From positions 1-54,684 of the IMG/VR virus record IMGVR_UViG_3300010399_000045: 54,684 bases of DNA. One strand, 5' to 3'. Below, one piece after another: positions 1-33,224 of this stretch. The notes beneath the pieces were generated by a model. The model had not been told where the DNA came from, searched no databases, and saw nothing but the letters and a program-made list of their open reading frames with translations. Numbering within the stretch: position 1 is the stretch's first letter; every line of letters starts with the position of its first letter. A program made the translations under genes and the position numbers. The DNA comes from a virus. Taxonomy: Duplodnaviria; Caudoviricetes.

Positions 1-23
1 AACAGGTCCAGCGTGGCGTTGAC

Positions 24-218
24 GTGAAAGAAAAGACCCAGTTCGAGGTGTCGGCCGCCTGGATGAAGTCCTGCGGACTCGGCAGCGAGGCGAAGGTGTT
101 CCCAGTGCTGCGTACGCAGCACTACCCGAAGGCGGCGGACTGGTGTGCGGTGATGGTGATCGTGGAGCGCGACGGCCGCGAGTGGACGGTCGCGCAAGGA
201 CGCGGCAAGTTTATCTGA
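24..218 (+). CDS. Small hypothetical early protein (may start upstream of the window)
   Basis: ORF whose TGA abuts HH1. Confidence 0.6.
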   Translation: MKEKTQFEVSAAWMKSCGLGSEAKVFPVLRTQHYPKAADWCAVMVIVERDGREWTVAQGRGKFI

Positions 219-285
219 GTCGAAACCGGGCCAGGGTGCCCGGTCGCGCAGCACCCGGCCCGCTGCGCCTGATGATGACAGGCCG
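219..285 (+). ncRNA. Type II hammerhead ribozyme HH1 (predicted cleavage after C245)
   Basis: GTC-GAAA-[ccgggc/gcccgg]-TC-[gcgcagc/gctgcgc]-CTGATGA-T-GAC; loop I cggcc pairs with tail ggccg. Confidence 0.92.
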
Positions 286-300
286 ACAGGAGCAGCTGAT

Positions 301-438
301 ATGCTGCGCTTTTTGATTGTCGAGCTGTGCAAGGCGATCCTGACCGTCGTGGTTGCTGCCACCCTGGTCATGTCGTTCGGCGCGTGGCTCGTCGGAGATG
401 AACAGGAGAGACCATATGCCGCGCATGACCGACGCTGA
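301..438 (+). CDS. Small hydrophobic (single TM) hypothetical protein, 45 aa
   Basis: AGGAG RBS after HH1, ATG 301, MLRFLIVELCKAILTVVVAATLVMSFGAWLVG. Confidence 0.55.
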   Translation: MLRFLIVELCKAILTVVVAATLVMSFGAWLVGDEQERPYAAHDRR

Positions 439-626
439 CAAGCAGCGCGCGAAGTCCGAGATGGCGTGCATGTGCCTGACCGCGGTGCGCGACTACCTTG
501 GTTCAACCCGAGGTGCCCATCTCATGGGACCGGGGGCCAAGGCGGAACTCGGCGATCCACAAGACGATCATCGTCACCACCGCCGGTGGCACCTTCAAGG
601 TGGCGGTCAGCGAGTACCCCAACTGA
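416..626 (+). pseudogene. Small early gene with an apparent frameshift near 540-555
   Basis: AGGAG RBS and ATG 416; the +1 frame reads AIHKTIIVTTAGGTFKVAVSEYPN and stops at 624-626, just before HH2 like the other cassettes. Confidence 0.4.
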
Positions 627-630
627 AAGA

Positions 631-699
631 GCCGAAACGCCGCAGGGTGCGGCGTCGGTAGGGAGATGGGCCGACCCTGCCCTGATGATGGCAGGCCCA
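631..699 (+). ncRNA. Type II hammerhead ribozyme HH2 (cleavage after C656)
   Basis: GCC-GAAA-[cgccgca/tgcggcg]-TC-[ggtaggg/ccctgcc]-CTGATGA-T-GGC; loop tgggcc pairs with tail ggccca. Confidence 0.92.
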
Positions 700-715
700 A
701 ACCCGGAGAGAAAAA

Positions 716-916
716 ATGAAGGTCACGATCGATCCGATCGACGTCGACTCGATCACCGTCGAGATCAGTGGTGTGCCACTTCGCCTGTCGATCGACGTGA
801 ACGATTGCCTTCGCATCGAGTCCCAGAAGGACTACCTTGGGGCCGCGGTGCTGGCCAGCAACACGGTCCTGGTGTCGTACCTGTCGCCCCCTCCGAAGAA
901 AAAGGTGCGCAAATGA
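716..916 (+). CDS. Hypothetical protein
   Basis: GGAGAG RBS after HH2. Confidence 0.7.
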   Translation: MKVTIDPIDVDSITVEISGVPLRLSIDVNDCLRIESQKDYLGAAVLASNTVLVSYLSPPPKKKVRK

Positions 917-1362
917 TCACAAAACATCAGGTCAAGGCACTCGAGCGCGAGTTCCCGGAGGGCATCCCCGCATGGATGCTGACGGGCGGCCACAGCGCCG
1001 ACCAGATCCGCGAGCTCATGACGCTGCGGCGTGCCGGCCCCGCCAGATCGGCGGAAGGGCAGGCCCCGGAGCACAACTTCAGTGTCGAACCCGAGCAGTG
1101 GGACGACGCTGTCGTGATGAACGCCGCCTACTTTCAGATCGTCATCGGGCGAAACCCGGTGACGCGCGAGCGGATGCAGTGCAAGGATCTGCCCGAAGCT
1201 GTCAACCTCGCGCGGGTGCTGCTGCACACGGTCGCCGGCCAGAGGCCGATGATCTACGCTGTCACCGCGACCGGCCGCAGCACCATGCTGGTGCCGCAGC
1301 GCTGGGAGCACTACCTCAAACTTTGGGAGAAGCATCATGGGACTGCAAAAGTTTCGGGCTGA
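913..1362 (+). CDS. Hypothetical protein
   Basis: ATGA overlap with previous gene; start MITKHQVK. Confidence 0.7.
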   Translation: MITKHQVKALEREFPEGIPAWMLTGGHSADQIRELMTLRRAGPARSAEGQAPEHNFSVEPEQWDDAVVMNAAYFQIVIGRNPVTRERMQCKDLPEAVNLARVLLHTVAGQRPMIYAVTATGRSTMLVPQRWEHYLKLWEKHHGTAKVSG

Positions 1363-1615
1363 CAAGTTCGACAAGCAGTCGGACGGTGCCGAGATAGGCG
1401 TCTCCGAGTGGCTAGGCGGCCCGACGGTCTCGCTGGTCCGCAACTGCCGCCTCGCCAACCTGGAGGGTAACATGCGTCGCACGGTCTACGCGACAGGCGA
1501 TCCCGACACGTTCTTCTCCATCCCCGCGGTGACCGTGATCGCAGGGTGCCATGTCAACGGGCACCTGACGCTCGACGAGGATTGCCTGACGGTGTTTCGT
1601 CAGTGCTACTACTGA
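1337..1615 (+). CDS. Hypothetical protein
   Basis: GGAG RBS; stop immediately before HH3. Confidence 0.7.
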   Translation: MGLQKFRADKFDKQSDGAEIGVSEWLGGPTVSLVRNCRLANLEGNMRRTVYATGDPDTFFSIPAVTVIAGCHVNGHLTLDEDCLTVFRQCYY

Positions 1616-1617
1616 TC

Positions 1618-1682
1618 GCCGAAACGCCGCGGGTAGCGGCGTCGTGCCGACCTGGTCCACGGCACCTGATGATGGCAGACCA
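1618..1682 (+). ncRNA. Type II hammerhead ribozyme HH3 (cleavage after C1643)
   Basis: GCC-GAAA-[cgccgc/gcggcg]-TC-[gtgccg/cggcac]-CTGATGA-T-GGC; loop tggtc pairs with tail gacca. Confidence 0.92.
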
Positions 1683-1701
1683 AAGATTCAGGAGCAGCCC
1701 A

Positions 1702-1908
1702 ATGGGCAAGCGATACAAGATGCTGAACGGAGAAAAGATGCCGGAGTTTCGCGCGCGCTGCCAGCGGCTCGAGGAGGAGCGGCGGGCGCCACCGCCTCCG
1801 CCGAAGCCCAAGCGGGTGCGCAAGTCCCGTGCCAAGCCGAAGCCCACGCCGATCGCCGACAAGGTCGACGGTTTCGACCGCGACAACCTCGGGTTGTCCC
1901 CCGACTGA
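1702..1908 (+). CDS. Small basic Pro-rich hypothetical protein
   Basis: AGGAG RBS after HH3; stop before HH4. Confidence 0.7.
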   Translation: MGKRYKMLNGEKMPEFRARCQRLEEERRAPPPPPKPKRVRKSRAKPKPTPIADKVDGFDRDNLGLSPD

Positions 1909-1910
1909 TT

Positions 1911-1977
1911 GCCGAAACCCGGACCAGATGTCCGGGTCCGCGCGGCGGTGGTTCCCCGCGCGCTGAAGAGGCAAACC
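1911..1977 (+). ncRNA. Type II hammerhead ribozyme HH4, canonical core without the extra U (cleavage after C1938)
   Basis: GCC-GAAA-[cccggac/gtccggg]-TC-[cgcgcgg/ccgcgcg]-CTGAAGA-GGC; loop ggtt pairs with tail aacc. Confidence 0.93.
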
Positions 1978-1994
1978 CCCGGAGAGATCAAAAG

Positions 1995-2423
1995 ATGATC
2001 AAACATGATGACCACCCGTTCAAGCCGGGCGTGAAGGTCGCGGTGATCAGCGCCTACGGCACCAAGCGCACCTTCCGCGAGGACGAGGTCGCCAAGGTTC
2101 ACAAGACCGGGCGCTTCTCTCTGCAGCAGACGGGTGCGCAGTGGCGCGTGGAGCACGGCACGATCACATACGGCGGGCCGCGTGTCTGGTACGCCGAGCA
2201 ACCGGCCCAGTCTGGTCGCCGCTTCCGCGACCGGGTGCGAGTCCTCGACGAGTCATTCCTCGCCGAGATCGAGGTGGAGAAGGCTGAGGAGGCGCGGCGT
2301 ACGCGCGTGATCGAGGCGGTTCGGACAGCTGAGAAGTTTCTGGGTGGGCGATCGCAGGATCGCCTGACCGACTGGCAGCTCGAGGCACTCGAGACCTTCA
2401 ACAACCTGTGCAAGGAGCACTGA
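1995..2423 (+). CDS. Hypothetical protein
   Basis: GGAGAG RBS after HH4; start MIKHDDHPFKPG. Confidence 0.7.
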   Translation: MIKHDDHPFKPGVKVAVISAYGTKRTFREDEVAKVHKTGRFSLQQTGAQWRVEHGTITYGGPRVWYAEQPAQSGRRFRDRVRVLDESFLAEIEVEKAEEARRTRVIEAVRTAEKFLGGRSQDRLTDWQLEALETFNNLCKEH

Positions 2424-2428
2424 TACAC

Positions 2429-2686
2429 ATGAGCGAGATTATCACCCGAATTGTGGAGCTTGGAAACGCCATGAAAGTTGCCCGGGAACGAAGCGAACTC
2501 GACCGCCTCTACGAGAAGGCGCGTGCCTACGGCGAGATGGTTGTCGACTATGAAGACGACGCCGACCCGGACACGATCTACGACGCGTGGATCCGGGCAG
2601 CGCGCAAGGCGCTCGAGCATGAGCCCGACCGTGCGCTCGCCGAGCAGGCTGCTTCCAAGGTCGCGCAGGCGTTCGCGCAGCCCTGA
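2429..2686 (+). CDS. Hypothetical protein
   Basis: AGGAG RBS; stop before HH5. Confidence 0.65.
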   Translation: MSEIITRIVELGNAMKVARERSELDRLYEKARAYGEMVVDYEDDADPDTIYDAWIRAARKALEHEPDRALAEQAASKVAQAFAQP

Positions 2687-2693
2687 AAGAATC

Positions 2694-2758
2694 GCCGAAA
2701 CCGGGCACCTAGCCCGGTCGTGCGGGGGTGAGCTCCCCGCGCCTGATGATGGCAGCTC
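2694..2758 (+). ncRNA. Type II hammerhead ribozyme HH5 (cleavage after C2719)
   Basis: GCC-GAAA-[ccgggc/gcccgg]-TC-[gtgcgggg/ccccgcgc]-CTGATGA-T-GGC; loop gagct pairs with tail agctc. Confidence 0.92.
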
Positions 2759-2776
2759 TACCTACGGAGAGAACAG

Positions 2777-3766
2777 ATGACCGCAGCTGTAGAGACGATG
2801 GCCTGGACCGGTCAGACACCGTGGCACGGCGAGGGGTTCAAGGTCGACAACAACCTGACGCCCGAGCAGATGGTCGCCGCGGCGAAGATCAACTGGACCG
2901 TGTCCAAGCGCAAGGCCTTCTTCGAGCACGACGGTCAGATGGTACCGGCAAAGGATGAATACGCGCTGGTGCGCGACAGCGACGGCTTCAAGCTGTCGAT
3001 GGTCGGTGCCGGCTACAAACCCGTCCAGAACGCCGACGCCATGGACTTCTTCAAGCGCTTCGTCGACGCCGGTCACATGACGATGGAGACGGCCGGCGCC
3101 CTGTGGAATGGCCGCTACGTGTGGGGCCTCGCGCGGGTCGGCAAGGACTTCAAGCTGGGTAACAAGGACGAGGTGCGCGCGTATCTGCTCCTGTCGTCGC
3201 CGCACGTGCACGGCCGGTCGTTGAATATCCAGTTCACGACCGTGCGTGTCGTGTGCTGGAACACCCTCACGATGGCGCTCGGCGCCAAGCTGGACGGTGG
3301 CAAGGGCAAGGGGTTCCGTGTGCCACACTCGATCGCCTGGAACGATAAGGTGAAGGAGCAGGCGCAGGAGGCCTTCGGGCTCGCCGCGGAGCAGATGGTC
3401 CAATTCAAGGAGGCGGCGACAGTCCTCGTCAAGAAGAAGGCCGCGACGGCCGAGGTCGAGGAGTACTTCTGCGAGGTGATGCGGTACGATCCGAAGGAGA
3501 ACACCCGCAAGAAGAAGGCGGACGGGTCGGAGCGCGAGCCGAGGTCCCTGCCGAAGTTCCGCGCGGCGCTCGAGCACAGCCCCGGCCAGCAGCTGGCGCC
3601 GGCGCTCGGCACCTGGTGGGGCGCCCTGAACGCCGTCACCTTCGTGATCGATCACGAGATCGGTCGCGACCGCACGACGGCCCTGCGCAACGCCTGGATG
3701 GGTCACACCGCAGGCATCAAGCGGCGGGCCCTCGACCTGGCCCTGCAGAAGGCCGTGAAGTCCTGA
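2777..3766 (+). CDS. DUF932-family phage/plasmid protein
   Basis: ETMAW...PWHG, ETAGAL.NGR.VW, VRVVCWNTL and GTWWGALNAVT motifs typical of the family. Confidence 0.85.
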   Translation: MTAAVETMAWTGQTPWHGEGFKVDNNLTPEQMVAAAKINWTVSKRKAFFEHDGQMVPAKDEYALVRDSDGFKLSMVGAGYKPVQNADAMDFFKRFVDAGHMTMETAGALWNGRYVWGLARVGKDFKLGNKDEVRAYLLLSSPHVHGRSLNIQFTTVRVVCWNTLTMALGAKLDGGKGKGFRVPHSIAWNDKVKEQAQEAFGLAAEQMVQFKEAATVLVKKKAATAEVEEYFCEVMRYDPKENTRKKKADGSEREPRSLPKFRAALEHSPGQQLAPALGTWWGALNAVTFVIDHEIGRDRTTALRNAWMGHTAGIKRRALDLALQKAVKS

Positions 3767-3769
3767 ATT

Positions 3770-3842
3770 GCCGAAACCTGCGGGGCCCGACAGCCCCCAG
3801 GTCGTGCCGATCTGGTCCACGGCACCTGATGATGGCAGACCA
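3770..3842 (+). ncRNA. Type II hammerhead ribozyme HH6 (cleavage after C3803)
   Basis: GCC-GAAA-[cctg-c-ggggc/gcccc-cagg]-TC-[gtgccg/cggcac]-CTGATGA-T-GGC; loop tggtc pairs with tail gacca. Confidence 0.92.
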
Positions 3843-3867
3843 AAAAAGTGGAGAGGAAAAGCAGGTC

Positions 3868-4179
3868 ATGGCTGAGATCCACATCACCCTGAACGAGGAT
3901 TCGTACTACAAGTGCCTGACTGACGTCGGTCTTCTAGATCTGATGGCCGTTGCGCACGTCGACCGCGTTGGTGACAACTATCACGTGCGTTTGACCCACA
4001 AGGATCTGGAACAGCTCCTGAAAGGTGAAAAGATCAGCCCAGACGAGTACGCGCACGAATTAGCCTGCCAGCTTGTTCGTCAAAGCCGGCCCAAGAAGAC
4101 GAAAAGTTACCTACTTAGTGCGGCCGTTGTCGTGTGGGCCACGGCGAGCGTACTCCTATTGTTCTTGGCGTATCAATAA
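3868..4179 (+). CDS. Hypothetical protein with C-terminal TM segment
   Basis: ORF between HH6 and HH7; hydrophobic C-terminus. Confidence 0.6.
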   Translation: MAEIHITLNEDSYYKCLTDVGLLDLMAVAHVDRVGDNYHVRLTHKDLEQLLKGEKISPDEYAHELACQLVRQSRPKKTKSYLLSAAVVVWATASVLLLFLAYQ

Positions 4180-4182
4180 ATG

Positions 4183-4255
4183 GCCGAAACCCAGGTCTTC
4201 CAGTGTACCTGGGTCGTCGCGGGCTGGGTACCCGCGGCCTGATGATGGCAACCCA
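4183..4255 (+). ncRNA. Type II hammerhead ribozyme HH7 (cleavage after C4215)
   Basis: GCC-GAAA-[cccaggt/acctggg]-TC-[gtcgcggg/cccgcggc]-CTGATGA-T-GGC; loop tgggt pairs with tail accca. Confidence 0.92.
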
Positions 4256-4271
4256 AACCCGGAGAGAAACG

Positions 4272-5177
4272 ATGTTAAAGAGCTACGAGCAGCGCGCGCA
4301 GGAGTACCTGGGTCGCGACCTCGCGGGCCTCACCGCGTACCTGCAGGGCTGCAGGGTCGACATGCACGAGCCCGACGAGCAGGGTGTCAAGGCAAGTGTA
4401 GTCGGCAGTCACCTGGACAACTCGTTCGGCAATACCGGCACCAACGACGAGCTGGTTGTGCTCCTCGACCGCGACGGCAAGCCACAGGAACGTTTTAACC
4501 TGGCTACACTGATCGCGCTGGCACGGCTCGCCGACCTCGGGTCCTTGATCCCGCGCGAGTATCAGCTGACGCCCCTGCAGATCACGATGCTCCTGCACTA
4601 CCACGCGATCGTTACACCCTACGGCCGCGGCGAGCCGGAGCACGCCAACTCGCCGGCCGTGCGGCAGCAGCGGGAAGCGATGGTGACGATGGGCCTGCTG
4701 TACGCGACCGACGAGTTCCCGTCAGGCTACAGGACGACCGAGGCCGGGCGCCGGCACGTCGAGCGCCTGACGCAGATGAGCCCGGGGCGCGCGTCTGACA
4801 GCACCCCGCTCGACGAGCTGTTCGATGAGCGTGAGCGGCAGCAGAACAACATGATCTTCGCTGCCGCGAATATCAGGGCGCACGCGGAGGCGTTCCGTGA
4901 GGTGACCGACCGCATCGTGAACATCCTCATGACCGGCGGCGGTGGGCACGACGAGGTCATCGACGAGACGGAGGTCATGAACACCGACACCTACGTCGAC
5001 CATGTGCTCATGACCGAGGCGGCTGGCAAGATCGACGAGAAACGCCGGCGTGTCTCCAAGCTCGAGCAGTTGCTGTGTCAGATCGTCGACGCCTACTTTG
5101 GGAAACAGCCTATTCGCGATGCCATCGCTGAGGCACGTGAACTCGTCAAGGACGTGCCACGGGAGGTCAGGTCGTGA
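4272..5177 (+). CDS. Hypothetical, probably multidomain, early protein
   Basis: GGAGAG RBS after HH7; 301 aa ORF. Confidence 0.7.
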   Translation: MLKSYEQRAQEYLGRDLAGLTAYLQGCRVDMHEPDEQGVKASVVGSHLDNSFGNTGTNDELVVLLDRDGKPQERFNLATLIALARLADLGSLIPREYQLTPLQITMLLHYHAIVTPYGRGEPEHANSPAVRQQREAMVTMGLLYATDEFPSGYRTTEAGRRHVERLTQMSPGRASDSTPLDELFDERERQQNNMIFAAANIRAHAEAFREVTDRIVNILMTGGGGHDEVIDETEVMNTDTYVDHVLMTEAAGKIDEKRRRVSKLEQLLCQIVDAYFGKQPIRDAIAEARELVKDVPREVRS

Positions 5178-5373
5178 AGGACGACCTGGTCTGCATCAGG
5201 CCCAGCGCTGGAGGAAACCTCACCTGGGCCAGCAGGGCTGCGTGCATACGCAGCCTGCGCGAGTTCAGCCCGGCCCCGCGGGCTGCGCACCGTGTCGTCC
5301 GGTTCTGGTCGACCCGGTATGGTAAATGGCGGTATTGTCGAGTCCTAGACCCGACTCGGTGCCGCAAACAGAA

Positions 5374-5440
5374 GTCGAAACCGGGCACCTAGCCCGGTCG
5401 TGCGGGGGTGAGCTCCCCGCGCCTGATGATGGCAGCTCAC
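5374..5440 (+). ncRNA. Type II hammerhead ribozyme HH8 (cleavage after C5399)
   Basis: Near-identical to HH5; GTC/GGC stem II; loop gtgagct complementary to tail agctcac. Confidence 0.92.
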
Positions 5441-5464
5441 AGAACATGGAACCCGGAGAGAACC

Positions 5465-6256
5465 ATGCAGGATAACAACAAGATCATCGACAAGATCCGC
5501 AAGGTGCTGGCCCTCACGTCCTCGCCGAACGAGGGTGAGGCGGCGAGCGCGGCAGCACGCGTGCAGGAGATGCTCGCCAAGTACAACCTTCAGCTCGGCG
5601 ACGTCATCGAGAAGAAGGCGGACGAGGCGATCCAGATCTACAAGGGCATGCGCACGCCTTCCCGGCCCTGGTGCCGGCAGATCGCGGTAGCGACCGCCAG
5701 TCTGTACTTCTGCCGCTACTACTACACGTTCGTCAAGGAGGGTGCCGCGCGCAAGTGCGGCTACATCCGCTACGACGAGCACTATTTCGTCGGCCGTCCG
5801 CACAACGCGGCGGTCGCCATGATGATGTTTGAGTACCTGACCAAGACTGTCGAGCGGTTGGCGGTCGCGGGCAGCAAGTCGGTGCCGGCCACCGAGCGGA
5901 CCTCCTACATGACCTCGTTCCGCACAGCCTGCGCCCTGCGCCTGAACGCCCGCATCTACGCCCGGCTCACCGAGACCATCAAGTCGGCGACCCGCAGCAC
6001 CGAGGTCAATGGTAGCGGCGGTGCCCCCAGCAGCAACCTCCCCGCGCTCGCCAGCCTGTACCAGCAGGCGAAGCAGGAACTGCAGGAGTTCATGGATGAG
6101 AACTTCAGCAAGAACAGTATCAAAGAGAAGGTGACCAAGGTCGTCTACAACCACAGCAAAGGTACCCAGGACGGCGACAAGGCCGGTTCCTCGATCGGCC
6201 TCGACCAACAGGTCGGTGCGGGTGGCAAGCCCTCCGCACTGATCGGGAGGACCTGA
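5465..6256 (+). CDS. DUF2786-domain protein
   Basis: KIIDKIRKVLALTSSPNEGEAASAAARVQEMLAKYNL signature. Confidence 0.85.
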   Translation: MQDNNKIIDKIRKVLALTSSPNEGEAASAAARVQEMLAKYNLQLGDVIEKKADEAIQIYKGMRTPSRPWCRQIAVATASLYFCRYYYTFVKEGAARKCGYIRYDEHYFVGRPHNAAVAMMMFEYLTKTVERLAVAGSKSVPATERTSYMTSFRTACALRLNARIYARLTETIKSATRSTEVNGSGGAPSSNLPALASLYQQAKQELQEFMDENFSKNSIKEKVTKVVYNHSKGTQDGDKAGSSIGLDQQVGAGGKPSALIGRT

Positions 6257-6258
6257 TC

Positions 6259-6462
6259 ATGGCTCGAATGATCGTCAGCGAGCGCGAGCGCCTGCTTCAC
6301 GGCGCCGTCCACGACCTCAGCAGCGCATTGCAGCACGTGCTGCGCGCGATCGACCTGTCGCAGGCGAACGGCGACGCGAGTGTCACCGTTCGCCAACCCC
6401 TGATCGAGGCACTCGCGTGCATCGACACAAGCCGCATCGAACTGGAAGGATTCATCGGATAA
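6259..6462 (+). CDS. Hypothetical protein
   Basis: GGAGG RBS; stop before HH9. Confidence 0.65.
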   Translation: MARMIVSERERLLHGAVHDLSSALQHVLRAIDLSQANGDASVTVRQPLIEALACIDTSRIELEGFIG

Positions 6463-6463
6463 A

Positions 6464-6531
6464 GCCGAAACGGCGCGCGTCGTCGCGCCGTCGTGCCGAT
6501 CTGGTCCACGGCACCTGATGATGGCAAACCA
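6464..6531 (+). ncRNA. Type II hammerhead ribozyme HH9 (cleavage after C6492)
   Basis: GCC-GAAA-[cggcgcg/cgcgccg]-TC-[gtgccg/cggcac]-CTGATGA-T-GGC; loop tggt pairs with tail acca. Confidence 0.92.
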
Positions 6532-6549
6532 AACCCGGAGAGAAACCAC

Positions 6550-7011
6550 ATGACCAAAGGTCGCAAGGTCAACCCGAGATATGCAAGCAAGAAGCGGACA
6601 CCCCGCCCGACGAGGGAAGAGTTGAGCCGGCGTCTGCAGGATCTCAGTACAGAACTGCGCATCGTGGAATCTGTGCGCGCCAGTGCCGAGGAGCGTGCAG
6701 GCCGATACTGGGAGGAGATCACGAAGCTGAAGCAGTACCTGGAGGAGGCCCAGGCAGGATCACGACATGCCTATGAGCAGCGCGACGATACGATACGCGA
6801 GCGCAACGAGGCCGAGGCTCGCATGTGGCGCCAGGCAGGAGCGCTGCAGCTGATCTGGGCCGAGTTCGCGCCGTACAACATGCTCGGCGCTGACCCCAAT
6901 CGCCTGAAGAACTCGCTGCGCGTGATCCACGGCATCGCCGAGCAGGCACTCGGCAGACAGAGCCTGGGTTGCGGCCTTTTCGAGGCCGCGCAACTGCGGA
7001 AGACCAACTAG
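6550..7011 (+). CDS. Coiled-coil hypothetical protein
   Basis: GGAGAG RBS after HH9; TAG overlaps the first base of HH10. Confidence 0.7.
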   Translation: MTKGRKVNPRYASKKRTPRPTREELSRRLQDLSTELRIVESVRASAEERAGRYWEEITKLKQYLEEAQAGSRHAYEQRDDTIRERNEAEARMWRQAGALQLIWAEFAPYNMLGADPNRLKNSLRVIHGIAEQALGRQSLGCGLFEAAQLRKTN

Positions 7012-7077
7012 CCGAAACCGGGCGCCCTTCGCCCGGTCGCGCGGACCTGACCCGCCGCGCCTGATGATGGCAGGTCG
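7011..7077 (+). ncRNA. Type II hammerhead ribozyme HH10 (cleavage after C7038)
   Basis: GCC-GAAA-[ccgggcg/cgcccgg]-TC-[gcgcgg/ccgcgc]-CTGATGA-T-GGC; loop gacc pairs with tail ggtc. Confidence 0.92.
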
Positions 7078-7103
7078 AAACAAAATTCCCCGGAGAGAAA
7101 GAT

Positions 7104-7289
7104 ATGATCACCGAAAACAAGCTGAAACGCGTACCGCGCATCTACCGCTGGATTGAGGGCTACGCCACTCTCATGGTCGGTGGTGGTGGTGTCATGATGC
7201 TGCTCCAGCAGCCCCTTTGGGCGATCGCCTTCTTCACTGGCGCGATCGCTCTAAAGCTGGACCTGCGCGACACAAGGGAGGGTTACTGA
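7104..7289 (+). CDS. Small membrane protein
   Basis: RBS after HH10; two hydrophobic stretches. Confidence 0.65.
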   Translation: MITENKLKRVPRIYRWIEGYATLMVGGGGVMMLLQQPLWAIAFFTGAIALKLDLRDTREGY

Positions 7290-7519
7290 TGGTACGGGAA
7301 AAGGAGGTCGTAAATCTCGAGTGCCTCGACCGCGACGACCTGTCGGATTACATCCGCAAGCACCAGGACGATCCGGCCTACAGCTACCAGGTGTCGATCG
7401 CGCAAACCATCCGTGAGGCCCAGGCGGCGCAGTTGACAGGGCAGATCTCCCGCGCCCTCACCCTCGAGAAGCATGCGGACGCGCTCTACAAGCTCCTGCC
7501 GCAGGAGGAGCGCTGGTGA
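7289..7519 (+). CDS. Hypothetical protein
   Basis: TGATG coupling, GGAGG RBS; stop before HH11. Confidence 0.65.
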   Translation: MVREKEVVNLECLDRDDLSDYIRKHQDDPAYSYQVSIAQTIREAQAAQLTGQISRALTLEKHADALYKLLPQEERW

Positions 7520-7522
7520 GAA

Positions 7523-7590
7523 GTCGAAACGGCGCGATGACGCGCCGTCGTGCAGCACCCGGCCCCGCTGCGCCTGATGATGACAGGGCC
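7523..7590 (+). ncRNA. Type II hammerhead ribozyme HH11 (cleavage after C7549)
   Basis: GTC-GAAA-[cggcgcg/cgcgccg]-TC-[gtgcagc/gctgcgc]-CTGATGA-T-GAC; loop ggccc pairs with tail gggcc. Confidence 0.92.
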
Positions 7591-7604
7591 CCCGGAGAGA
7601 GAAG

Positions 7605-7964
7605 ATGAAGAAGGCATCAGTTGACCCACGCGAAGCGCGCCTGCCGGTTTGGGCACGCGACGAGCTCGACACGCTACGCCGCAAGGTCACGGATCTGCAG
7701 AAGGCGCTCACAACTATCACCGAGTGCAACAAACCGGCCCAGTTCTGGGTCGACCTCGGGCCATCGAGCAACACCCCCGGTCGCTTCTACCTGCAACAGC
7801 CGCGGATGCACTTCGGCGTGGACCCGATGGACGACGGTTTCGGTACCCAGCACCTGCAGCTGATCCATCGCGAGGAAGGTGGTCAGCACTACCTCGAGAT
7901 CAACGGCAAGCAGGCCCTGTACGTGCGTCCGTATGCTAGCAACGTCCTGCGGATCATGGTGTGA
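7605..7964 (+). CDS. Hypothetical protein
   Basis: GGAGAG RBS after HH11. Confidence 0.7.
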   Translation: MKKASVDPREARLPVWARDELDTLRRKVTDLQKALTTITECNKPAQFWVDLGPSSNTPGRFYLQQPRMHFGVDPMDDGFGTQHLQLIHREEGGQHYLEINGKQALYVRPYASNVLRIMV

Positions 7965-8320
7965 GCACCATGACCAAGTTCAAGCAGGGCAAGGAAGCTG
8001 CGGACCGGGTGCGCCAGCACCACGCGGACGAAGAGCAGTACGAACTGCCCGAACCCGACGTGACCCCCGCTACCCACCCCGACCATCACACGGTCGGCAA
8101 GGAGTTCATGGGTCACGACTACCGGCGACACGGGTGGCCCGCGGTGCGCTGGTTCTGCGAGTCACATGACCGATGCGGCTACTGGATGTACGCGACCGAC
8201 GGGTCCGGTCATTGGACCAATGTGTCGGAGCGCGCAATCGGCCGCAGCTTCCACGAGATCGAGCGCTTGCCGTCCGGTCGCCTGATCTGTGCGGGCTGGC
8301 GGGTTCCAACTTATACTTGA
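7961..8320 (+). CDS. Hypothetical protein
   Basis: GTGA overlap with previous gene. Confidence 0.6.
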   Translation: MSTMTKFKQGKEAADRVRQHHADEEQYELPEPDVTPATHPDHHTVGKEFMGHDYRRHGWPAVRWFCESHDRCGYWMYATDGSGHWTNVSERAIGRSFHEIERLPSGRLICAGWRVPTYT

Positions 8321-8331
8321 AAGGAGGAGAC

Positions 8332-9171
8332 ATGCGTGCGCAGCGAAGGACCGCCGAACCTCGATGGGGTGTCGTCGGAGCTGCGATTACGTTGGCTGCC
8401 GCTGCCGGTTACTTCAGTGTAACCGGCATGGCAGCACTCTATGCGGGGTCGGCGATCGGGGTCAGCGTAATCTTTGCGGCGATCGAGATCGGTAAATTGG
8501 CAACCGCCGCTTCCCTGCATCGCTACTGGCCCGGTCTGTCGTGGGTCGTTCGGATCGGACTGATGGTGGCCCTGCTGGCCGCCATGCTCCTGACCTCGGC
8601 TGGTGTGTACGGCTACCTTCTGCGGGCCTACCTGTCGCGCGCACCAGCACTCACCTCAGCGCAGCAGGTGGTAGCCTCACAAGAACGCCTGATCGTCGAC
8701 CTGGAAGCGCGCCTGCGTGCGGCGCCTGCCAAGATCAACCTGCCTTCTCGCATCTCGTCCCGCGCGATGACGATCGCTGCACAGGCGCAGGCAGCAGAAC
8801 AAAAGAGACAGGCGACAGATAGAATGCGCCTGACGACCGAGTACCAAGCTGCTCTACAACGGCTGGCGGAATTGCGCACAACAGCGGCCGAGGTGGAGGT
8901 GGAACTTGGACCCGCAAGAACACTCGCCACGTGGCTCAACCTGGGGCAGTCCGGTGCTGTAGAGGTGCTGACCTTGATCTCGGTGTTGTGCCTCGATCCG
9001 CTAGCCGTCCTGCTGATGATGGCCGGCAGTGGGCGCGCACAAAACCTTCCTATCAGGCGGGTCAAGAAGAAACGAAAAAGTCTCAAGAAGAAGGTGCGTA
9101 AAAGCTTACCGCGAGTAACACCAACCTACACAACACCAGTAGCGCGTTTAACAAGCAGCAAGAAGGGGTAA
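8332..9171 (+). CDS. Membrane protein (3 TM + coiled coil + TM, basic tail)
   Basis: AGGAGG RBS; hydrophobic helices; DPLAVLLMMA. Confidence 0.7.
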   Translation: MRAQRRTAEPRWGVVGAAITLAAAAGYFSVTGMAALYAGSAIGVSVIFAAIEIGKLATAASLHRYWPGLSWVVRIGLMVALLAAMLLTSAGVYGYLLRAYLSRAPALTSAQQVVASQERLIVDLEARLRAAPAKINLPSRISSRAMTIAAQAQAAEQKRQATDRMRLTTEYQAALQRLAELRTTAAEVEVELGPARTLATWLNLGQSGAVEVLTLISVLCLDPLAVLLMMAGSGRAQNLPIRRVKKKRKSLKKKVRKSLPRVTPTYTTPVARLTSSKKG

Positions 9172-11338: not shown

Positions 11339-11893
11339 ATGATAGGCAAAGCACCGATGGCACCCGGTATGGATCAGGGTGCTCTGGGATGGATGATCAG
11401 GACAGCGAGAAAGAACCACTGGCGGGTTTCCGCCTACATCGATCTGGACGACCTGATGCAGGACGGGTACTTTTACTGGTTACGGATCGGCAGCAGGTAC
11501 CCAGATGTCAAGGACCAGCCGCTCCGCATGCGCTTGTTTCAAACCGCATTCAACAATCACCTTACAAATCTGGCGACTCGACGCACCCGCCAACCGAACT
11601 TCCTCCCCCTGATGGTGCAGCAGCTCGAAGAAGAAGCCGGCCGAACGCCTGAGCACGAGCTGATCGAACTCCCCCCAACGACCATCGCCTACTCGGATCA
11701 TGGTATCTGTCGCAACCTAGTACGCCGCGCGATTGAAGCGCTCGGCAGCGACGCTGGTGCCGCCGCATGGCGTGCTCCGTACGACCGGCGAGCCGACGGC
11801 ACACGCGAGACTACCAACGAGCGGCTGTGCCGCATCGTGGGCGTGGACCCCACCCAGATCAACATGCTTGCAGTACTCCGCGCGGCGCTCTGA
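11339..11893 (+). CDS. Sigma-factor-like protein (region 2-like)
   Basis: IDLDDLMQDGYFYW...F.TAFNNHL resembles sigma70/ECF region 2; GGGAGG RBS. Confidence 0.55.
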   Translation: MIGKAPMAPGMDQGALGWMIRTARKNHWRVSAYIDLDDLMQDGYFYWLRIGSRYPDVKDQPLRMRLFQTAFNNHLTNLATRRTRQPNFLPLMVQQLEEEAGRTPEHELIELPPTTIAYSDHGICRNLVRRAIEALGSDAGAAAWRAPYDRRADGTRETTNERLCRIVGVDPTQINMLAVLRAAL

Positions 11894-11946
11894 TACGCCG
11901 CGGTATGTACCTGGTACAAGGTCTTCTACCTGGAGAGACAAACAAG

Positions 11947-12411
11947 ATGCCAGTTGAGATCACCCGGCGCGTCGAGTTCGACGCCGGTCATCGCATTCCG
12001 AACCATGCGTCAAAATGCCGCAACATCCACGGTCACCGCTACCGCCTGGAGGCGACCGTGTCAGGGGCCGTCCTAGAAGCCCGCGGCGAGTCGGACGACG
12101 GGATGATCGTCGACTTCGGCCTCCTCAAGCAGGTCATGAGCGAGTGTGTCGCCGACAGGTGGGACCACGCCTTCCTCTGCTGGGAGGGTGACCACTCGAT
12201 GTGCTGGGTTCTGGAGCACGCGCGCGACGAGCTCGGCGATCACCGCACGGTCATCATGCCCGATGTGCCGACCGCCGAGAACTTGGCACAGGCGGCCTTC
12301 CGCCTGATCGACGGGGGGTTGCAAACGGCAGGCGCACCGTTCGAGCTCGTGCGGGTGCGCCTGTACGAGACCCCGAACTGCTGGGCCGACGCGACGAGGG
12401 GGGAGACCTGA
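11947..12411 (+). CDS. queD: 6-carboxy-5,6,7,8-tetrahydropterin synthase
   Basis: FDAGHRI...KCRNIHGHRY, DFG.LK, WDHAFL, PTAENLA, RLYETP. Confidence 0.93.
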   Translation: MPVEITRRVEFDAGHRIPNHASKCRNIHGHRYRLEATVSGAVLEARGESDDGMIVDFGLLKQVMSECVADRWDHAFLCWEGDHSMCWVLEHARDELGDHRTVIMPDVPTAENLAQAAFRLIDGGLQTAGAPFELVRVRLYETPNCWADATRGET

Positions 12412-12412
12412 G

Positions 12413-13204
12413 ATGCCGCACACCGCGGAGGAGCTCGCGAAGGTCGAGGTCACAGGGCCGGTGCTGTTCGCCGACGGCGCACGCGGCATGGCCCGACAGG
12501 AGTTTCAGGCGGTCGGCATCGAGCGCCTGCGCTACGTGTGGTCGCGGAAGGACCGCGACGACAAGGGCCGCACCTATTGGGCGGTCGATGGCACCGAGGT
12601 CGCGGATCTTGCGCATGCCGCCGAGATGCTCAACCGCGATCCAGACCCCGAGTCGCCGGCCGAGCAGTGGAAGCGCTGGCGCGCGGAGCAGGACGCCTCG
12701 CCGAAGCTCGCGGGTCGTGCTCGGCGCGCGCGCAACGTGGCCGAGTGCGCCGCGCACGTGGCCCCGGTCGGCCAGTTCAGCATGTGGCGCGAGCGGGTGG
12801 ATCATGCGTGGCACACCGGCATCAATCACTACGCCGACGACCTGCGCCATCAACCGCACGACCCCGGAACCTCGGTTCATCCGTACTGGTTGTACGACGT
12901 CAAGTACATGACCGGCGAGATGTCGCGGCTGCAGCACCTATGGGCCGCCGATCGCAAAGAGGACCAGGAACTGATCTGCGCGCTCGGTACCCGCTGCCGG
13001 GACTGCCCGATCCTACAGCAGATAGAGCTGTCACTCATAGAAGCACGGATCAAGAAGCCCTTCCCGCAACCCGACATCGAGGACGGGGACATCGACCTCG
13101 TCAAGACCATGACGTGCATCGGACACGTGCTGTCCCGGGGCGGCCCGCACAGCCTGCTGCACGACGGTTGCCTTATCACCAACAAGCGCGACAGGGAGGA
13201 TTGA
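12413..13204 (+). CDS. Hypothetical protein, Cys/His-containing
   Basis: Long ORF coupled to queD; CALGTRCRDC. Confidence 0.65.
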   Translation: MPHTAEELAKVEVTGPVLFADGARGMARQEFQAVGIERLRYVWSRKDRDDKGRTYWAVDGTEVADLAHAAEMLNRDPDPESPAEQWKRWRAEQDASPKLAGRARRARNVAECAAHVAPVGQFSMWRERVDHAWHTGINHYADDLRHQPHDPGTSVHPYWLYDVKYMTGEMSRLQHLWAADRKEDQELICALGTRCRDCPILQQIELSLIEARIKKPFPQPDIEDGDIDLVKTMTCIGHVLSRGGPHSLLHDGCLITNKRDRED

Positions 13205-13289
13205 ACCCAAAGCCAAAAACGGGATGGACCCGGGCGGTCCCGGAGAACTAGCGGCCCGGTCGGAAAAACCTTCGCAAAGGGTAGTACTT

Positions 13290-13916
13290 ATGACAAGCAT
13301 CTTGCAGGAACTGTCGAAAGCGGCCAGCATGAAGGCGCCGAAAGGCGGGCCGGACGAAGCTTGGTTGCGCTCGCTGGTCGAGACCATCAACGCAAAGGCC
13401 GACACCGACCAGGACTTCTGGGACAAGCTGTCCGAACCAGCACAGCAGTACGTCAACGACGGACAGCTCGCGCTGAACGAGGGCAAGCCCATCCCATCGA
13501 TCGACGACAACGGCCCGGCACCCAACGGTAACGGTGCCGATCATCAGGAGCAGGACGACATGACCGACAAGACCACCAAGAAGGCGAAACCCGCTGGTGG
13601 CGGTGGAGCGAAGAAGGCAGCGGCCGCGAAACCCGCGGGCGATCCCAAGAAGAAGGCAGCGGCACCGGCCAAAAAGGCAGCGGCAGCGAAGCCCGCGGCC
13701 GACAAGGCGGCGGGTCCCAAGAAGGTATCCGGGATCAAGGTTGCGATCAAGATGGCGATCATCAAGCAGCCCGGCATCTCGCTGGAGGACCTGATCGGCA
13801 AGCTCGAGAAAGATGGCGAGAAGGTTTCGCGGTACACGACGGCCTCCATCAGGTCGGAGTTTCGCCACAGCCTGCGCGTCCTCAATCAGGCCGGGGTCAC
13901 CAAGATCGATCTCTGA
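13290..13916 (+). CDS. Protein with Lys/Ala-rich histone H1-like repeats
   Basis: AKKAAAAKPA repeats between N- and C-terminal globular parts. Confidence 0.7.
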   Translation: MTSILQELSKAASMKAPKGGPDEAWLRSLVETINAKADTDQDFWDKLSEPAQQYVNDGQLALNEGKPIPSIDDNGPAPNGNGADHQEQDDMTDKTTKKAKPAGGGGAKKAAAAKPAGDPKKKAAAPAKKAAAAKPAADKAAGPKKVSGIKVAIKMAIIKQPGISLEDLIGKLEKDGEKVSRYTTASIRSEFRHSLRVLNQAGVTKIDL

Positions 13917-13946
13917 TCTGCGGCTTCCCCCGCAGGGGTTTGTTTC

Positions 13947-13988
13947 AAAAAGAGCGCGGGTCGGTTGAGATCCCAGGCCCGCGCTTTT
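13947..13988 (+). terminator. Putative intrinsic terminator hairpin
   Basis: agcgcgggtc...ggcccgcgct followed by TTT and preceded by an A run. Confidence 0.4.
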
Positions 13989-14021
13989 GACCTTCTCGGA
14001 ACTAAAAAAGGAGCACGCCGT

Positions 14022-14765
14022 ATGCCGTGCCTTGTCCTGCTATCCGGTGGAATGGATTCCACCGTGACGTTCTACGATCTGCTGCATAAGGCAAAGAAGG
14101 ACGAGATCCTCACAACAAGTGACGGTCACCGGCGATGCTATGTTTCGGGTCCGGTTCACGCCGCCGCGTTGTACTACGGGCAGCGTCACGAGAGGGAGCT
14201 CGCGGCCGCCGAACAGATCTTCAGGATGGCGCAGGGTCAGGACTTGCCTGCGGGGAGGTTCTTCGTACCCCCGAGGCTCGAGACATTCTCGGCTGACCAC
14301 TCGTGCTTGACAGGTCCCACCACCGTCGCCACGTACGAGAACCCACCCACCGAGCGCGAAGCAATGCGCGACCCGGCGTTCGTGCCCTACCGCAACCTGC
14401 TGTTCTTTACCGTCGGGGCCATGCTGGCCCGCTCGCTGGACGCGCACGTTATCGGCACCGGCATCCGCGGGGGGTACCCCGACTGCACCGAGGCGTTCGA
14501 GCGGCAGGTTGAGGCAACCCTCGAGGCGGCGGTACCTGGTACACAGTTGATACTCTACAGCGCGGCCCACGGCAGTCGTGCCGAGACGGTGTCACGTGCA
14601 CGAGGTTTGTCGGGGTGCTGGGAGGCACTGGCTCTCACGGTTACCTGCTTCCAGCGAACCCCTGTGATCGGCGGCTGCGGCAGGTGCTTGCCGTGTCATC
14701 GCCGCGCGCAGGGATTCGCTGCCGCCGGCTTCGCCGACCCAGCCCTCCCAGCCCTCCCCGCCTAG
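14022..14765 (+). CDS. queC: 7-cyano-7-deazaguanine synthase
   Basis: LLSGGMDST, YGQRH, FVPYRNL, YPDC, TCF...CGRCLPC. Confidence 0.9.
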   Translation: MPCLVLLSGGMDSTVTFYDLLHKAKKDEILTTSDGHRRCYVSGPVHAAALYYGQRHERELAAAEQIFRMAQGQDLPAGRFFVPPRLETFSADHSCLTGPTTVATYENPPTEREAMRDPAFVPYRNLLFFTVGAMLARSLDAHVIGTGIRGGYPDCTEAFERQVEATLEAAVPGTQLILYSAAHGSRAETVSRARGLSGCWEALALTVTCFQRTPVIGGCGRCLPCHRRAQGFAAAGFADPALPALPA

Positions 14766-14820
14766 GGTGCCGTTTTTCCGCGACCTGGCAGATCGCCGGG
14801 AGGAGATTTCGCGATCCCCT

Positions 14821-15435
14821 ATGGGGACATCACCGGAGACGCCCAAGATGCCCCGCGACCGACTTGCCGCCGTTGCCGCTGTGCGTAACCTGCTGGAGTT
14901 CAGTGGTGACAACCCTTTACGAGAGGGTCTGTCCGACACCCCCGAACGGGTCGTCAAGGCTTGGGAGTTCTGGACCTCGGGCTACGGGGTGAACCCGCAA
15001 GACCTGCTGACGACCTTCGAGGACGGGGTGTGCCGCGACGAGCTTGTCTTCCAGGCCGCCGTCCCGTTCTTCTCGCTCTGCGAGCATCATATGTGCCCGT
15101 TCTTCGGCCTCGCACACGTCGGGTATATCCCGGGTGCGCGGGTCGTCGGCCTGTCAAAAATTGCGCGGGTGATCGAGGTGTTTGCGCGACGTCTCCAGGT
15201 ACAGGAACGTTTGACAGGGCAGGTCGCCGACACTATTTGGGGAGGTCTCGGCGCCATGGGGGTGGGTGTCGTCATGCAGGCCCGCCACCTATGCATGGAG
15301 TCACGCGGTGTCCAAAAGATCGGCACCGTGACCACCACCACGGCCCTACGCGGCAACTTCAAGGAACGGCCCGAGGTGCGCGCCGAGTTCATGACCCTGG
15401 TCGGGGTCGCCATGCAGGGGATCAAAACGATATGA
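14821..15435 (+). CDS. folE: GTP cyclohydrolase I (start uncertain)
   Basis: REGLSDTPERV, SLCEHH, GLSKIAR, RRLQVQERL, HLCMESRGV. Confidence 0.95.
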   Translation: MGTSPETPKMPRDRLAAVAAVRNLLEFSGDNPLREGLSDTPERVVKAWEFWTSGYGVNPQDLLTTFEDGVCRDELVFQAAVPFFSLCEHHMCPFFGLAHVGYIPGARVVGLSKIARVIEVFARRLQVQERLTGQVADTIWGGLGAMGVGVVMQARHLCMESRGVQKIGTVTTTTALRGNFKERPEVRAEFMTLVGVAMQGIKTI

Positions 15436-18051: not shown

Positions 18052-18059
18052 GCGGGGGC

Positions 18060-24552: not shown

Positions 24553-24715
24553 GCGACCTGTTGCAGGAATGCAACAGGTCTGGGCCGCGTCGTAGGAGAG
24601 GGCAGGGGTGCCGTGAACGGTTTTCCGGCACCCCCCACCGCAGGGAGGCCCAAAAACCGCCCCAGCAGCTCCCGCAGATGCATTTTCAGGCGTGATTAGG
24701 CAAGGAGTAGCAGCG

Positions 24716-32699: not shown

Positions 32700-33224
32700 A
32701 TGCGACAGGCAATCGTCATAGCCGAGATCATGTCGGGCGGTCAGACGGGTGTCGACCAGGCGTTCCTGCGCGCGGCCGCTGCCTGCCGCATCCCGACGAG
32801 GGGCTGGATGCCTCGCGGGTACCTGACAGAGGACGGCCCGCGACCCGATCTCGCGCGACGGTTCTGCCTGGAGGAGCACCTCTCCGACAAGTACCCACCA
32901 CGGACAGCGAAGAACATCCACGAGTCGGACGTCACCCTGCTGATCGCCCCGTACAGGTTCGGGCCCGGCAGCAAGTTGACGATGACGATGTGCGAGTCCA
33001 TGAAGAAGCCCTGCTACCACATCGCCTCAGATTCCCTACACTCCCACTATACCGACGCGCGCTTCTATGCTGTTATAAGCTGGCTCAAGAAGGCAGCGGC
33101 GCTCAAGGGCGCGCTGACCGTCAACGGTGCTGGTTCACGCGAGTCAAGTCAGCCGGGCATCGGTGTCGCGGCCGAGAAGTTCCTGATCGCCCTGTTCAGG
33201 TACCTTGACGGGAAGCCGATATGA
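32700..33224 (+). CDS. SLOG-family (putative molybdenum carrier-like) protein
   Basis: SGGQTGVDQA, GWMPRG..TEDG, YPPRT.KNI.ESD.TL, NGAGSRES. Confidence 0.8.
   Translation: MRQAIVIAEIMSGGQTGVDQAFLRAAAACRIPTRGWMPRGYLTEDGPRPDLARRFCLEEHLSDKYPPRTAKNIHESDVTLLIAPYRFGPGSKLTMTMCESMKKPCYHIASDSLHSHYTDARFYAVISWLKKAAALKGALTVNGAGSRESSQPGIGVAAEKFLIALFRYLDGKPI

Follow-up and report, generated by a model that had tools for sequence, protein, structure and literature searches.

Hammerhead ribozymes as probable recombination linkers between the early genes of an uncultivated phage

The viral contig considered here (54,684 bases, the whole of the IMG/VR record IMGVR_UViG_3300010399_000045, referred to below as the window) carries an array of type II hammerhead ribozymes that alternate with small open reading frames (ORFs). 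An earlier sequence-only reading had proposed that the halves of these ribozymes are reassorted at the cleavage site and that the array is an integron-like cassette system, in which the exchanged unit is exactly the RNA released by two cleavages and is moved by DNA recombination or through an RNA intermediate. This idea is partly supported, as a modular exchange linked to the ribozymes, whereas its specific form (cleavage-bounded, integron-like or RNA-mediated) is not supported. The two halves of the ribozyme are independent modules, and relatives differ in which genes the array contains, the breakpoints being tied to the ribozymes. The ribozymes probably serve as linker repeats, dispersed between the genes and recombining as DNA, like the promoter-early stem-loops (PeSLs) of T4-type phages, with a stem III that turns over fast.

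A core-motif scan (type II order: GAAA, hairpin, GTH, hairpin, CTGANGA) of both strands of the entire window identified 11 hammerheads (HH1 to HH11), all on the + strand and spanning 218-7596; a weak extra match at 29170, given by a looser detector and with stems of 3 and 4 base pairs (bp), was treated as chance. All 11 contain CTGA[T/A]GA, CGAAAC and GTC in the right order and spacing, and all 11 have 4-6 complementary bases that would form a pseudoknot between loop I and the 3' tail. They share three invariant segments (GYCGAAAC, GGTC and CCTGATGATGRCA), the last of which is often followed directly by CCGGAGAGA. In HH1 (218-287) the stem III hairpin lies at 226-243, the stem I hairpin at 246-268 and CUGAUGA at 269-275, stem II is GUC/GAC and cleavage is predicted after 245. 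The other members, each with the position after which cleavage is predicted and its score with the Rfam model RF02276 (Hammerhead_II), are HH2 (630-700; 656; 47.2 bits), HH3 (1617-1684; 1643; 47.3 bits), HH4 (1910-1981; 1938; 41.9 bits), which has CUGAAGA and GUC|C, HH5 (2693-2761; 2719; 48.8 bits), HH6 (3769-3844; 3803; 35.0 bits), with a long stem III containing one mismatch, HH7 (4182-4257; 4215; 45.1 bits), HH8 (5373-5441; 5399; 48.2 bits), a duplicate of HH5, HH9 (6463-6533; 6492; 41.9 bits), HH10 (7010-7079; 7038; 34.4 bits) and HH11 (7522-7592; 7549), which is the last ribozyme of the array, has a GUC/GAC stem II and has no Rfam score. Nine of the 11 are therefore found by this model at E<=1, seven of them above its gathering score (37 bits) and two (HH6 and HH10) below it, at 34-35 bits. 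HH1 and HH11 gave no match even at E<=10 in 251-nucleotide (nt) windows, although they still have CUGAUGA, GAAA, GUC, three helices and the loop I-tail pseudoknot, so that the standard model overlooks members with an intact core.

The array continues on an adjoining viral contig, G001 (56,957 bases; CheckV completeness 59%, against 54% for the window). The terminal 123 bases of locus L135, which lies on G001, are identical (100%) to positions 1-123 of the window, and five more hammerheads are located directly upstream; the stretch concerned, positions 1 to 7407 on the reverse strand of L135, joins window 1-123. Given this overlap, the two contigs appear to be the two halves of a single phage genome, which would measure about 111 kilobases (kb) and carry at least 16 ribozymes in about 9.8 kb. 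All five hammerheads of the adjoining contig are matched by RF02276, including copies with a GUC/GAC stem II, and the same helix alone therefore does not explain why HH1 and HH11 are missed. Covariation was analysed in 25 sequences (11 from the window, five from the adjoining contig and nine from a close relative, R, whose tenth copy, cut by a contig end, was omitted), and HH1 fits this alignment. Counting the pseudoknot, 93.3% of 525 cells pair, vs 74.4% in shuffles (none of 500 shuffles reached the observed value), and 14 of 21 pairs show changes on both sides. In the helices alone, 93-99% of the cells pair and 10 of 16 pairs changed on both sides, while in the pseudoknot 80.8% of the cells pair and 4 of 5 pairs changed in this way. 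Covariation thus supports loop-closed stems I and III and an open stem II in the hammerheads of the array, which, to judge from sequence, are genuine type II hammerheads. Their self-cleavage is to be expected from the intact cores and by analogy with the clusters tested by Perreault et al. (2011; PMC3088659).

Every pattern of shared stems that had been listed for these 11 ribozymes is present. The stem I GTGCCGAyCTGGTCCACGGCAC is found in HH3, HH6 and HH9, each time with a different stem III, and the stem III CCGGGC/GCCCGG is found in HH1, HH5, HH8 and HH10 with three different stem Is; HH2 and HH3, and also HH9 and HH11, have only the stem III helix in common, and HH1 and HH11 only stem I. 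The first six nucleotides of stem III are shared by 8 of the 55 pairs in the window (binomial tail 7e-5) and, once HH8 is removed, by 5 of 45 (tail 0.005), the pairs not being independent of each other. This exceeds chance, because hammerheads from unrelated contigs share those six bases at 2.5%, a background that was taken from 90 loci, with the lineage of the window excluded and a second lineage of 20 loci (see below) collapsed to one locus per draw. Stem I is shared by 5 of the 55 pairs. Only one pair (HH5/HH8) shares both halves, vs 0.73 expected under independence, and when the halves are compared separately, leaving out HH8, their distance matrices are not congruent (Mantel r=0.055, p=0.33). 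If the relative is included, two stem III types and two stem I types are found in every one of their four possible pairings (HH3, HH9, HH11 and R6). The claim that the halves are reassorted is thus borne out. The GTCG motif, which had been named as the switch point, is indeed flanked by two variable hairpins, but it is merely an invariant spacer of 3-4 nt, and HH4 has GTCC in its place.

Such a pattern could in principle arise with no exchange at all. A small repertoire of stable G+C-rich helices might recur through compensatory mutation if selection favoured a stem III that is stable and a stem I with a loop able to pair with the tail. The helices CCGGGC/GCCCGG and CGCCGC/GCGGCG, with their flanking cores, are present in 33 and 17 other viral stretches, among which tblastn and blastn found no close relative, and the loops differ among HH1/HH5/HH10, between HH2 and HH3 and between HH9 and HH11 despite the shared helix. 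Because of these two observations, helix identity alone is weak evidence of exchange. However, the 17-nt stem III hairpin CGCCGCGGGTAGCGGCG is identical, loop included, at the non-orthologous sites HH3, V2, V5, R1 and R5 (V and R denote ribozymes of the adjoining contig and of the relative), and R9, the orthologue of HH3, carries a different stem III hairpin. In the same way, identical 22-nt stem I hairpins precede unrelated ORFs (HH10=V2=R1; R2=R7; HH6=HH9), and stem III helices are shared by 21 of 120 pairs within the phage and by 13 of 45 in R, vs the 2.5% background. Recurrence without any exchange is for these reasons considered unlikely. Whole ribozymes have also been copied, since HH5 (2696-2758) and HH8 (5376-5438) are identical over 63 nt and have unrelated flanks; this 63-nt unitig is at double depth in the contigs of run X1. 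Low-depth contig joints (e.g., 6460->1635 and 7076->7031) are explained by the repeated stem I sequences and were not counted as rearrangements. Two further observations concern stem III. The stem III hairpins of R1 (387) and R2 (708), on the reverse strand of L133, are exact reverse complements of each other, and between HH2 (window 638-654) and its orthologue R8 there is a near-inversion of the stem III loop, suggesting that inversion of the loop between the arms of a perfect palindrome may be a mutational route.

The positions at which gene content breaks were read from the comparison with R, the close relative found in one metagenome scan. R consists of two overlapping metagenome contigs (L133 and L134, identical over 2,145 bases); it is 79-98% identical to window 39-2751 and extends further upstream. 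When R is compared with the joined array (V, the part on L135, plus W, the window), eight ribozyme sites are orthologous and gene content differs in five places, in none of which the break is at GTC|G. The first difference is a 196-nt insert (with a 62-amino-acid ORF) present only in V and located exactly between two copies of AAGTCGAAAC, the 10-nt 5' core of the ribozyme (L135 reverse strand, 5583-5592 and 5779-5788), the first of which is an orphan with no ribozyme behind it. In the second (from V2/R1 to V3/R3), R has an ORF, a ribozyme and another ORF where V has a single unrelated ORF, and the breaks fall in the tail of the first ribozyme and at the 5' edge of the next one. The third (from V3/R3 to V4/R4) is the replacement of an ORF alone, from the ribosome-binding site to the next 5' edge. 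The fourth is a unit of ribozyme R7 plus an ORF that only R has, and here HH2 retains the stem III helix of R8 and not that of R7. In the fifth, HH4 and the ORF at 1995-2423 are present only in the window, R having at this place two adjacent genes with no ribozyme between them; a contig of the independent run X4 shows the joint 1889->2411, which matches this difference. At least one boundary lies at a ribozyme edge in all five differences, and both do so in four of them.

The claim that the exchanged unit runs from stem I through the gene to the next stem III, and so equals the RNA released by two cleavages, is not supported by these breaks. A dedicated system of this kind, with a mobile unit [stem I-core-ribosome-binding site-gene(s)-GAAA-stem III] exchanged at GTC|G by site-directed DNA recombination or an RNA intermediate, would account for the statistical independence of the halves, and mixed halves would still close because stem II hardly varies (GYC/GRC; a pairing of GUC with GGC is already seen in HH8). 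But the unit would have to take stem III along with the upstream ORF, and in the lineage of the window stem III stays with its position instead: its helix is kept at all four orthologous sites where the upstream ORF is unrelated, and it is changed at two of the four sites where that ORF is homologous (HH1/R6 and HH3/R9). The helix of HH2 also departs from what the model predicts, which is the helix of R7. V2/R1 and V3/R3 are islands in which the whole ribozyme is conserved (stem III 1.00 and 0.89, stem I 1.00 and 1.00) between unrelated flanks of about 0.5 identity, and HH4 and its gene sit where the relative has no ribozyme to split. Thirty-six non-orthologous pairs within W and R share just one hairpin at a similarity of at least 0.8 (14 stem I only, 22 stem III only), and in no case is the adjoining ORF flank (60 nt or 90 nt) shared as well. 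The copying of HH5/HH8 as one piece points in the same direction. Altogether, a cassette system bounded by cleavage sites seems improbable for this array. In the comparison of W with R, exact sharing of stem III between non-homologous sites was not in excess within genomes (1/90 vs 2/90).

The whole-ribozyme copies and islands, together with the two indels between the window and R, each of which includes a complete ribozyme and the ORF downstream of it, might suggest that the ribozyme is itself mobile, i.e., that complete hammerheads, alone or with the ORF behind them, insert as moron-like units and that later decay and turnover of the hairpins give the mosaic. No insertion signature or enzyme was found, though; the indel flanked by AAGTCGAAAC carries an ORF that has no ribozyme of its own, and the replacements of an ORF alone leave both flanking ribozymes in place. 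As a separate explanation this appears quite improbable, and it overlaps with recombination between linkers without excluding it.

A wider test was possible in a second lineage. The generic type II pattern matched at least 120 viral stretches; among the matches listed, from which the figures for this lineage come, 20 loci (L014, L026, L027, L038, L056, L059, L061, L080, L081, L088, L101, L108, L112, L114, L116, L119, L120, L121, L127 and L128) form one syntenic group with 4-13 type II hammerheads each, and 18 arrays were analysed after L059 and L120 had been dropped as near-duplicates. Alignments of these arrays show clean breaks at the stop codon or at the start codon with the whole ribozyme kept, and breaks fall 5' of the ribozyme, between its hairpins and 3' of it, those at the junction being a minority. 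As there are clean examples of each kind, the junction between the hairpins is one of three joints in use and not the sole one. Where the downstream gene is the same and the upstream one differs (n=13), the whole ribozyme is kept in four comparisons, stem I only in seven and neither hairpin in two; where the upstream gene is the same and the downstream one differs (n=16), stem I stays with the upstream side in seven, only stem III does so in four and neither in five. At orthologous sites, stem III differs by an edit distance of at least 4 in 119 of 252 pairs and stem I in only 5 of 252. Stem III thus outpaces stem I at orthologous sites, yet it is more often shared between paralogues, and exact stem III sharing at non-homologous sites is more frequent within a locus (14/340) than between loci (88/5755; odds ratio 2.8, p=0.0015), two facts that weigh against recurrence without exchange. 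On the other hand, the stem IIIs of this lineage are 4-6-bp C/G helices with UUCG- or GNRA-like loops and occupy a very small sequence space, which would fit such recurrence, and so would the outcome for two candidate swaps, an apparent patch swap of stem I (L056 vs L027) and an apparent swap of the whole ribozyme (L108 vs L101). On alignment, each of them consists of compensatory variants of one stem I, the second with a replaced stem III in addition. The indel of L121 vs L128 was not assignable to a single junction. Tandem ribozymes with no gene between them occur in L014, L038 and L059, and this well-sampled lineage lends itself to work on the evolution of ribozymes and cassettes. Apart from it, locus L124 contains ten type II hammerheads in 3.7 kb (874-4613, about 300-670 bases apart), the densest among the arrays examined, with the same loop I motif (TGGCTA) and tail in all ten.

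Retention of each hairpin was also counted for 267 non-identical hammerheads from 112 loci, using cross-locus pairs only. When both flanks are homologous, stem III is retained in 149 of 343 pairs and stem I in 258; when only the downstream flank is homologous, stem III is retained in 35 of 256 and stem I in 147; when only the upstream flank is, stem III is retained in 64 of 212 and stem I in 69; and when neither is, the figures are 423 and 437 of 30,808.

Several of these results weigh against recombination between whole linkers as the general explanation, and some of them are what a cassette system would produce. Where only the upstream flank is homologous, stem III is retained in 30% of the pairs, against 14% where only the downstream one is. 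In 4 of the 16 same-upstream comparisons stem III remains upstream while stem I goes with the new downstream gene, in 7 of the 13 same-downstream comparisons stem I is kept but not stem III, and L112 vs L114 is a clean indel of exactly [stem I-ORF-stem III]. Exchange bounded by the junction does therefore occur, as had been proposed, although it is a minority in the second lineage and none was found in that of the window. The counts from the second lineage are phylogenetically non-independent, and the detector, the flank-homology thresholds and the pair counts are ad hoc. The 4-nt GGTC is short for a RecA-type exchange, so that junction events need a stem III tract that was once shared or another mechanism. 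Some of the sharing is convergence and not transfer, because the recurrent helices are generic across phages, and cleavage itself is inferred. Finally, a single close relative lineage was found, which makes its five events few, and the direction of each is inferred. Junction-bounded events might be due to a dedicated route acting on the cleavage unit, by means of a structure-specific enzyme that cuts single-stranded DNA between neighbouring hairpins, or of cleaved cassette RNAs that a ribozyme or a ligase rejoins in another order and that are then copied into DNA, but we regard this as very improbable. There is a parallel in integrons, whose integrase cuts at folded attC sites, and if such a route were true, hammerhead arrays would be a ribozyme-defined gene-cassette system.

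Recombination between linkers would find its enzymes in the phage itself. The window encodes, all on the + strand, a gp32-like single-strand-binding protein (22886-24133; Pfam gp32 E=2e-5, below the curated cut-off), a RecA/UvsX-like recombinase (24692-25756; Pfam RecA E=1.6e-38), a Mre11-like phosphoesterase (33221-34243; Pfam Metallophos E=2.8e-9) and a SbcC/Rad50-like ATPase (36425-38467; Pfam AAA_23 E=2.5e-11). The sequence-only reading had noted that no integrase or reverse transcriptase is present in the window, and six-frame searches of both contigs at E<=0.01 extend this negative result: there was no match to the tyrosine integrases (PF00589), although part of the genome may be unseen, nor to serine resolvases (PF00239), Y1/HUH transposases (PF01797), reverse transcriptases (PF00078) or RtcB (PF01139). 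This speaks against a dedicated cassette system, as does the statement of Perreault et al. (2011; PMC3088659) that spliced or circular products of such clusters escaped detection. An array comparable with integrons is not supported either, because there is no integrase and no fixed crossover site.

The evidence can be brought together in the following way. At the RNA level, the window would hold the last 11 of at least 16 hammerheads in an early-gene operon of about 9.8 kb from an uncultivated soil phage. Each ribozyme, going by the hammerhead family, would cut the long early transcript after GUC and release mRNAs of one or two genes, with a stem I hairpin, the pseudoknot tail and a ribosome-binding site at the 5' end and a stem III hairpin at the 3' end. 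At the DNA level, the same elements would act as dispersed direct repeats of about 70 nt, present in almost all of the gaps between genes. As conserved linkers they would allow homologous or microhomology recombination, both within the genome and between co-infecting relatives, and this would probably be driven by the phage's own RecA/UvsX-gp32-Mre11/Rad50 machinery. Three kinds of product would be expected. The first are ORF-by-ORF replacements and indels bounded by the outer edges of the ribozymes (the stop codon or 5' core on one side; the tail, ribosome-binding site or start codon on the other), sometimes with a whole ribozyme and its downstream ORF moved together; the second are whole-ribozyme copies, such as HH5=HH8; and the third are short-patch replacement, loop inversion and partial within-genome homogenisation of stem III, which would be weakly constrained. 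Stem I and the pseudoknot tail would evolve slowly, by compensatory change, and serve with the ribosome-binding site as a conserved 5' leader. Survivors would be the recombinants that keep each hairpin and the pairing of loop I with the tail intact, and because only these survive, crossovers would be seen only in the invariant spacers, mimicking halves reassorted at the cleavage site. Events of the junction type may arise where two ribozymes have some 25 nt in common, made up of the 5' core and stem III, or from GGTC microhomology.

The intervals between the ribozymes (3..7519, + strand) contain one or two small ORFs each, most of which match no family. Each ATG is preceded, 6-12 nt upstream, by a GGAG-type ribosome-binding site, and the stop codons lie 0-10 nt before the next ribozyme or within it. 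Family matches were obtained for a DUF932 ORF (2777-3766, + strand), a DUF2786+DUF7168 ORF (5465-6256, + strand) and, directly past the last ribozyme, a DUF7239 ORF (7605-7964). Several ORFs enter the next ribozyme and end at the TAG of its stem III loop (window 5174-5392; L133 reverse strand 176-406; L135 reverse strand 5611-5799), and two unrelated proteins share a ...SKRRG tail because the ribozyme 5' core and stem III encode both ends. A leader, GGAGAGATCAAAA, followed by ATG, precedes four different genes (L135 reverse strand at about 4813-4845, 5150-5180 and 5835-5866; window 1973-1997), two of which also have their first codons (ATGAACATCC) in common, which makes the start region with its ribosome-binding site a further repeated segment. 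No ribozyme lies ahead of the first of the four genes, and this gene may mark the start of the operon.

Elsewhere, the phage encodes a clamp-loader-like ATPase, a baseplate protein, a PDDEXK protein and an 867-amino-acid ORF (17997-20600) in which a domain of the uracil-DNA-glycosylase superfamily is fused to a PolA with 3'-5' exonuclease and family A DNA polymerase domains. The usual genes for 7-deazaguanine precursors (a QueD-like PTPS, QueC and FolE, i.e., GTP cyclohydrolase I) are grouped at window 11767-15435, and the phage may modify its own DNA. No annotated relative is available, since none of 50,697 phage records was matched by window 1-8400 in a megablast search and a tblastn search of the phage collection with PolA gave nothing above 34% identity. 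Among viral contigs, a scan seeded with the DUF932 protein returned only three distant loci (39-44% identity), none with hammerheads, scans seeded with the DUF2786 protein and with the ORF at 913-1362 returned no loci, and the exact stem I type A pattern was present in no stretch. A pattern made of the tail and ribosome-binding site hit nine stretches of genome contigs, none with a hammerhead or a homologous protein, and these were treated as chance.

These results suggest that one element of 70 nt has two jobs, insulating genes at the RNA level with standard 5' and 3' ends and serving at the DNA level as a linker for the exchange of whole genes. Although hammerhead clusters have been known in phages since 2011, neither the reason for their presence nor the way they evolve has been clearly explained. 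If the proposal made here is true, ribozyme arrays would be a second and independent way, alongside the T4-type PeSLs, of turning over early accessory genes rapidly, anti-defence genes probably among them. The arrays also offer a natural data set in which the freely varying part of a ribozyme (stem III) can be told from the constrained one (stem I and the pseudoknot tail), and this bears on the ribozyme insulators used in synthetic biology. Literature searches, going by titles and the openings of abstracts, gave nothing beyond Perreault et al. (2011) on reassorted ribozyme halves or on phage cassettes bounded by ribozymes, and listed no paper in which ribozyme hairpins assort independently or in which ribozymes act as linkers for recombination.

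Among the known systems, integrons are similar to the array in having ordered, same-strand and mostly single promoterless ORFs, each with a hairpin-forming element, and a gene content that varies between relatives. Integron gene cassettes are moved by recombination between attC and attI sites, catalysed by IntI. Here, in contrast, no tyrosine recombinase was matched on either contig, breaks are spread over at least three positions around the ribozyme, the repeat is a predicted catalyst at the RNA level, and the array belongs to a phage of lytic type. According to the modular theory of lambdoid phages, short conserved intergenic boundary or linker sequences are the crossover points at which whole genes are exchanged, even where their neighbours are otherwise unrelated; unlike these, the linkers of the array have a defined RNA function, are strongly structured and are partly hypervariable in sequence.

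The hammerhead clusters described by Perreault et al. (2011; PMC3088659) flank single genes or short blocks in prophages and phages, and the flanked genes, in the words of that paper, "are not constant". Three tandem arrangements were cleaved in vitro, a role in processing long transcripts into gene-length mRNAs was proposed, and ligation and circles were considered, although none were found. As described there, these clusters and the present array have in common type II hammerheads in which loop I forms a pseudoknot with the 3' tail, located on one strand between small variable phage genes, but the array is much denser than they are, with its at least 16 ribozymes in about 9.8 kb. In the passages considered here, that paper is silent on the independent assortment of stem III with stem I, on stem III turnover and on breakpoint positions, on which its supplements could bear. 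The closest working analogue is the PeSL cassettes described for T4-type phages in two papers (Arbiol et al. 2010, PMC2839356; Comeau et al. 2014, PMC4122927), whose repeats mediate indels and replacements of ORFan genes through homologous recombination between repeats. In both cases small conserved regulatory repeats lie among non-essential ORFan genes of a hyperplastic region, the repeats mark the limits of the indels and replacements that distinguish close relatives, and the phage carries its own recombination machinery. The repeat here differs in being a predicted self-cleaving ribozyme, instead of an early promoter with a terminator stem-loop, and in being itself modular, with two hairpins that assort independently. 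The array thus combines features of two known kinds, the hammerhead clusters of phages and linker shuffling of the PeSL type.

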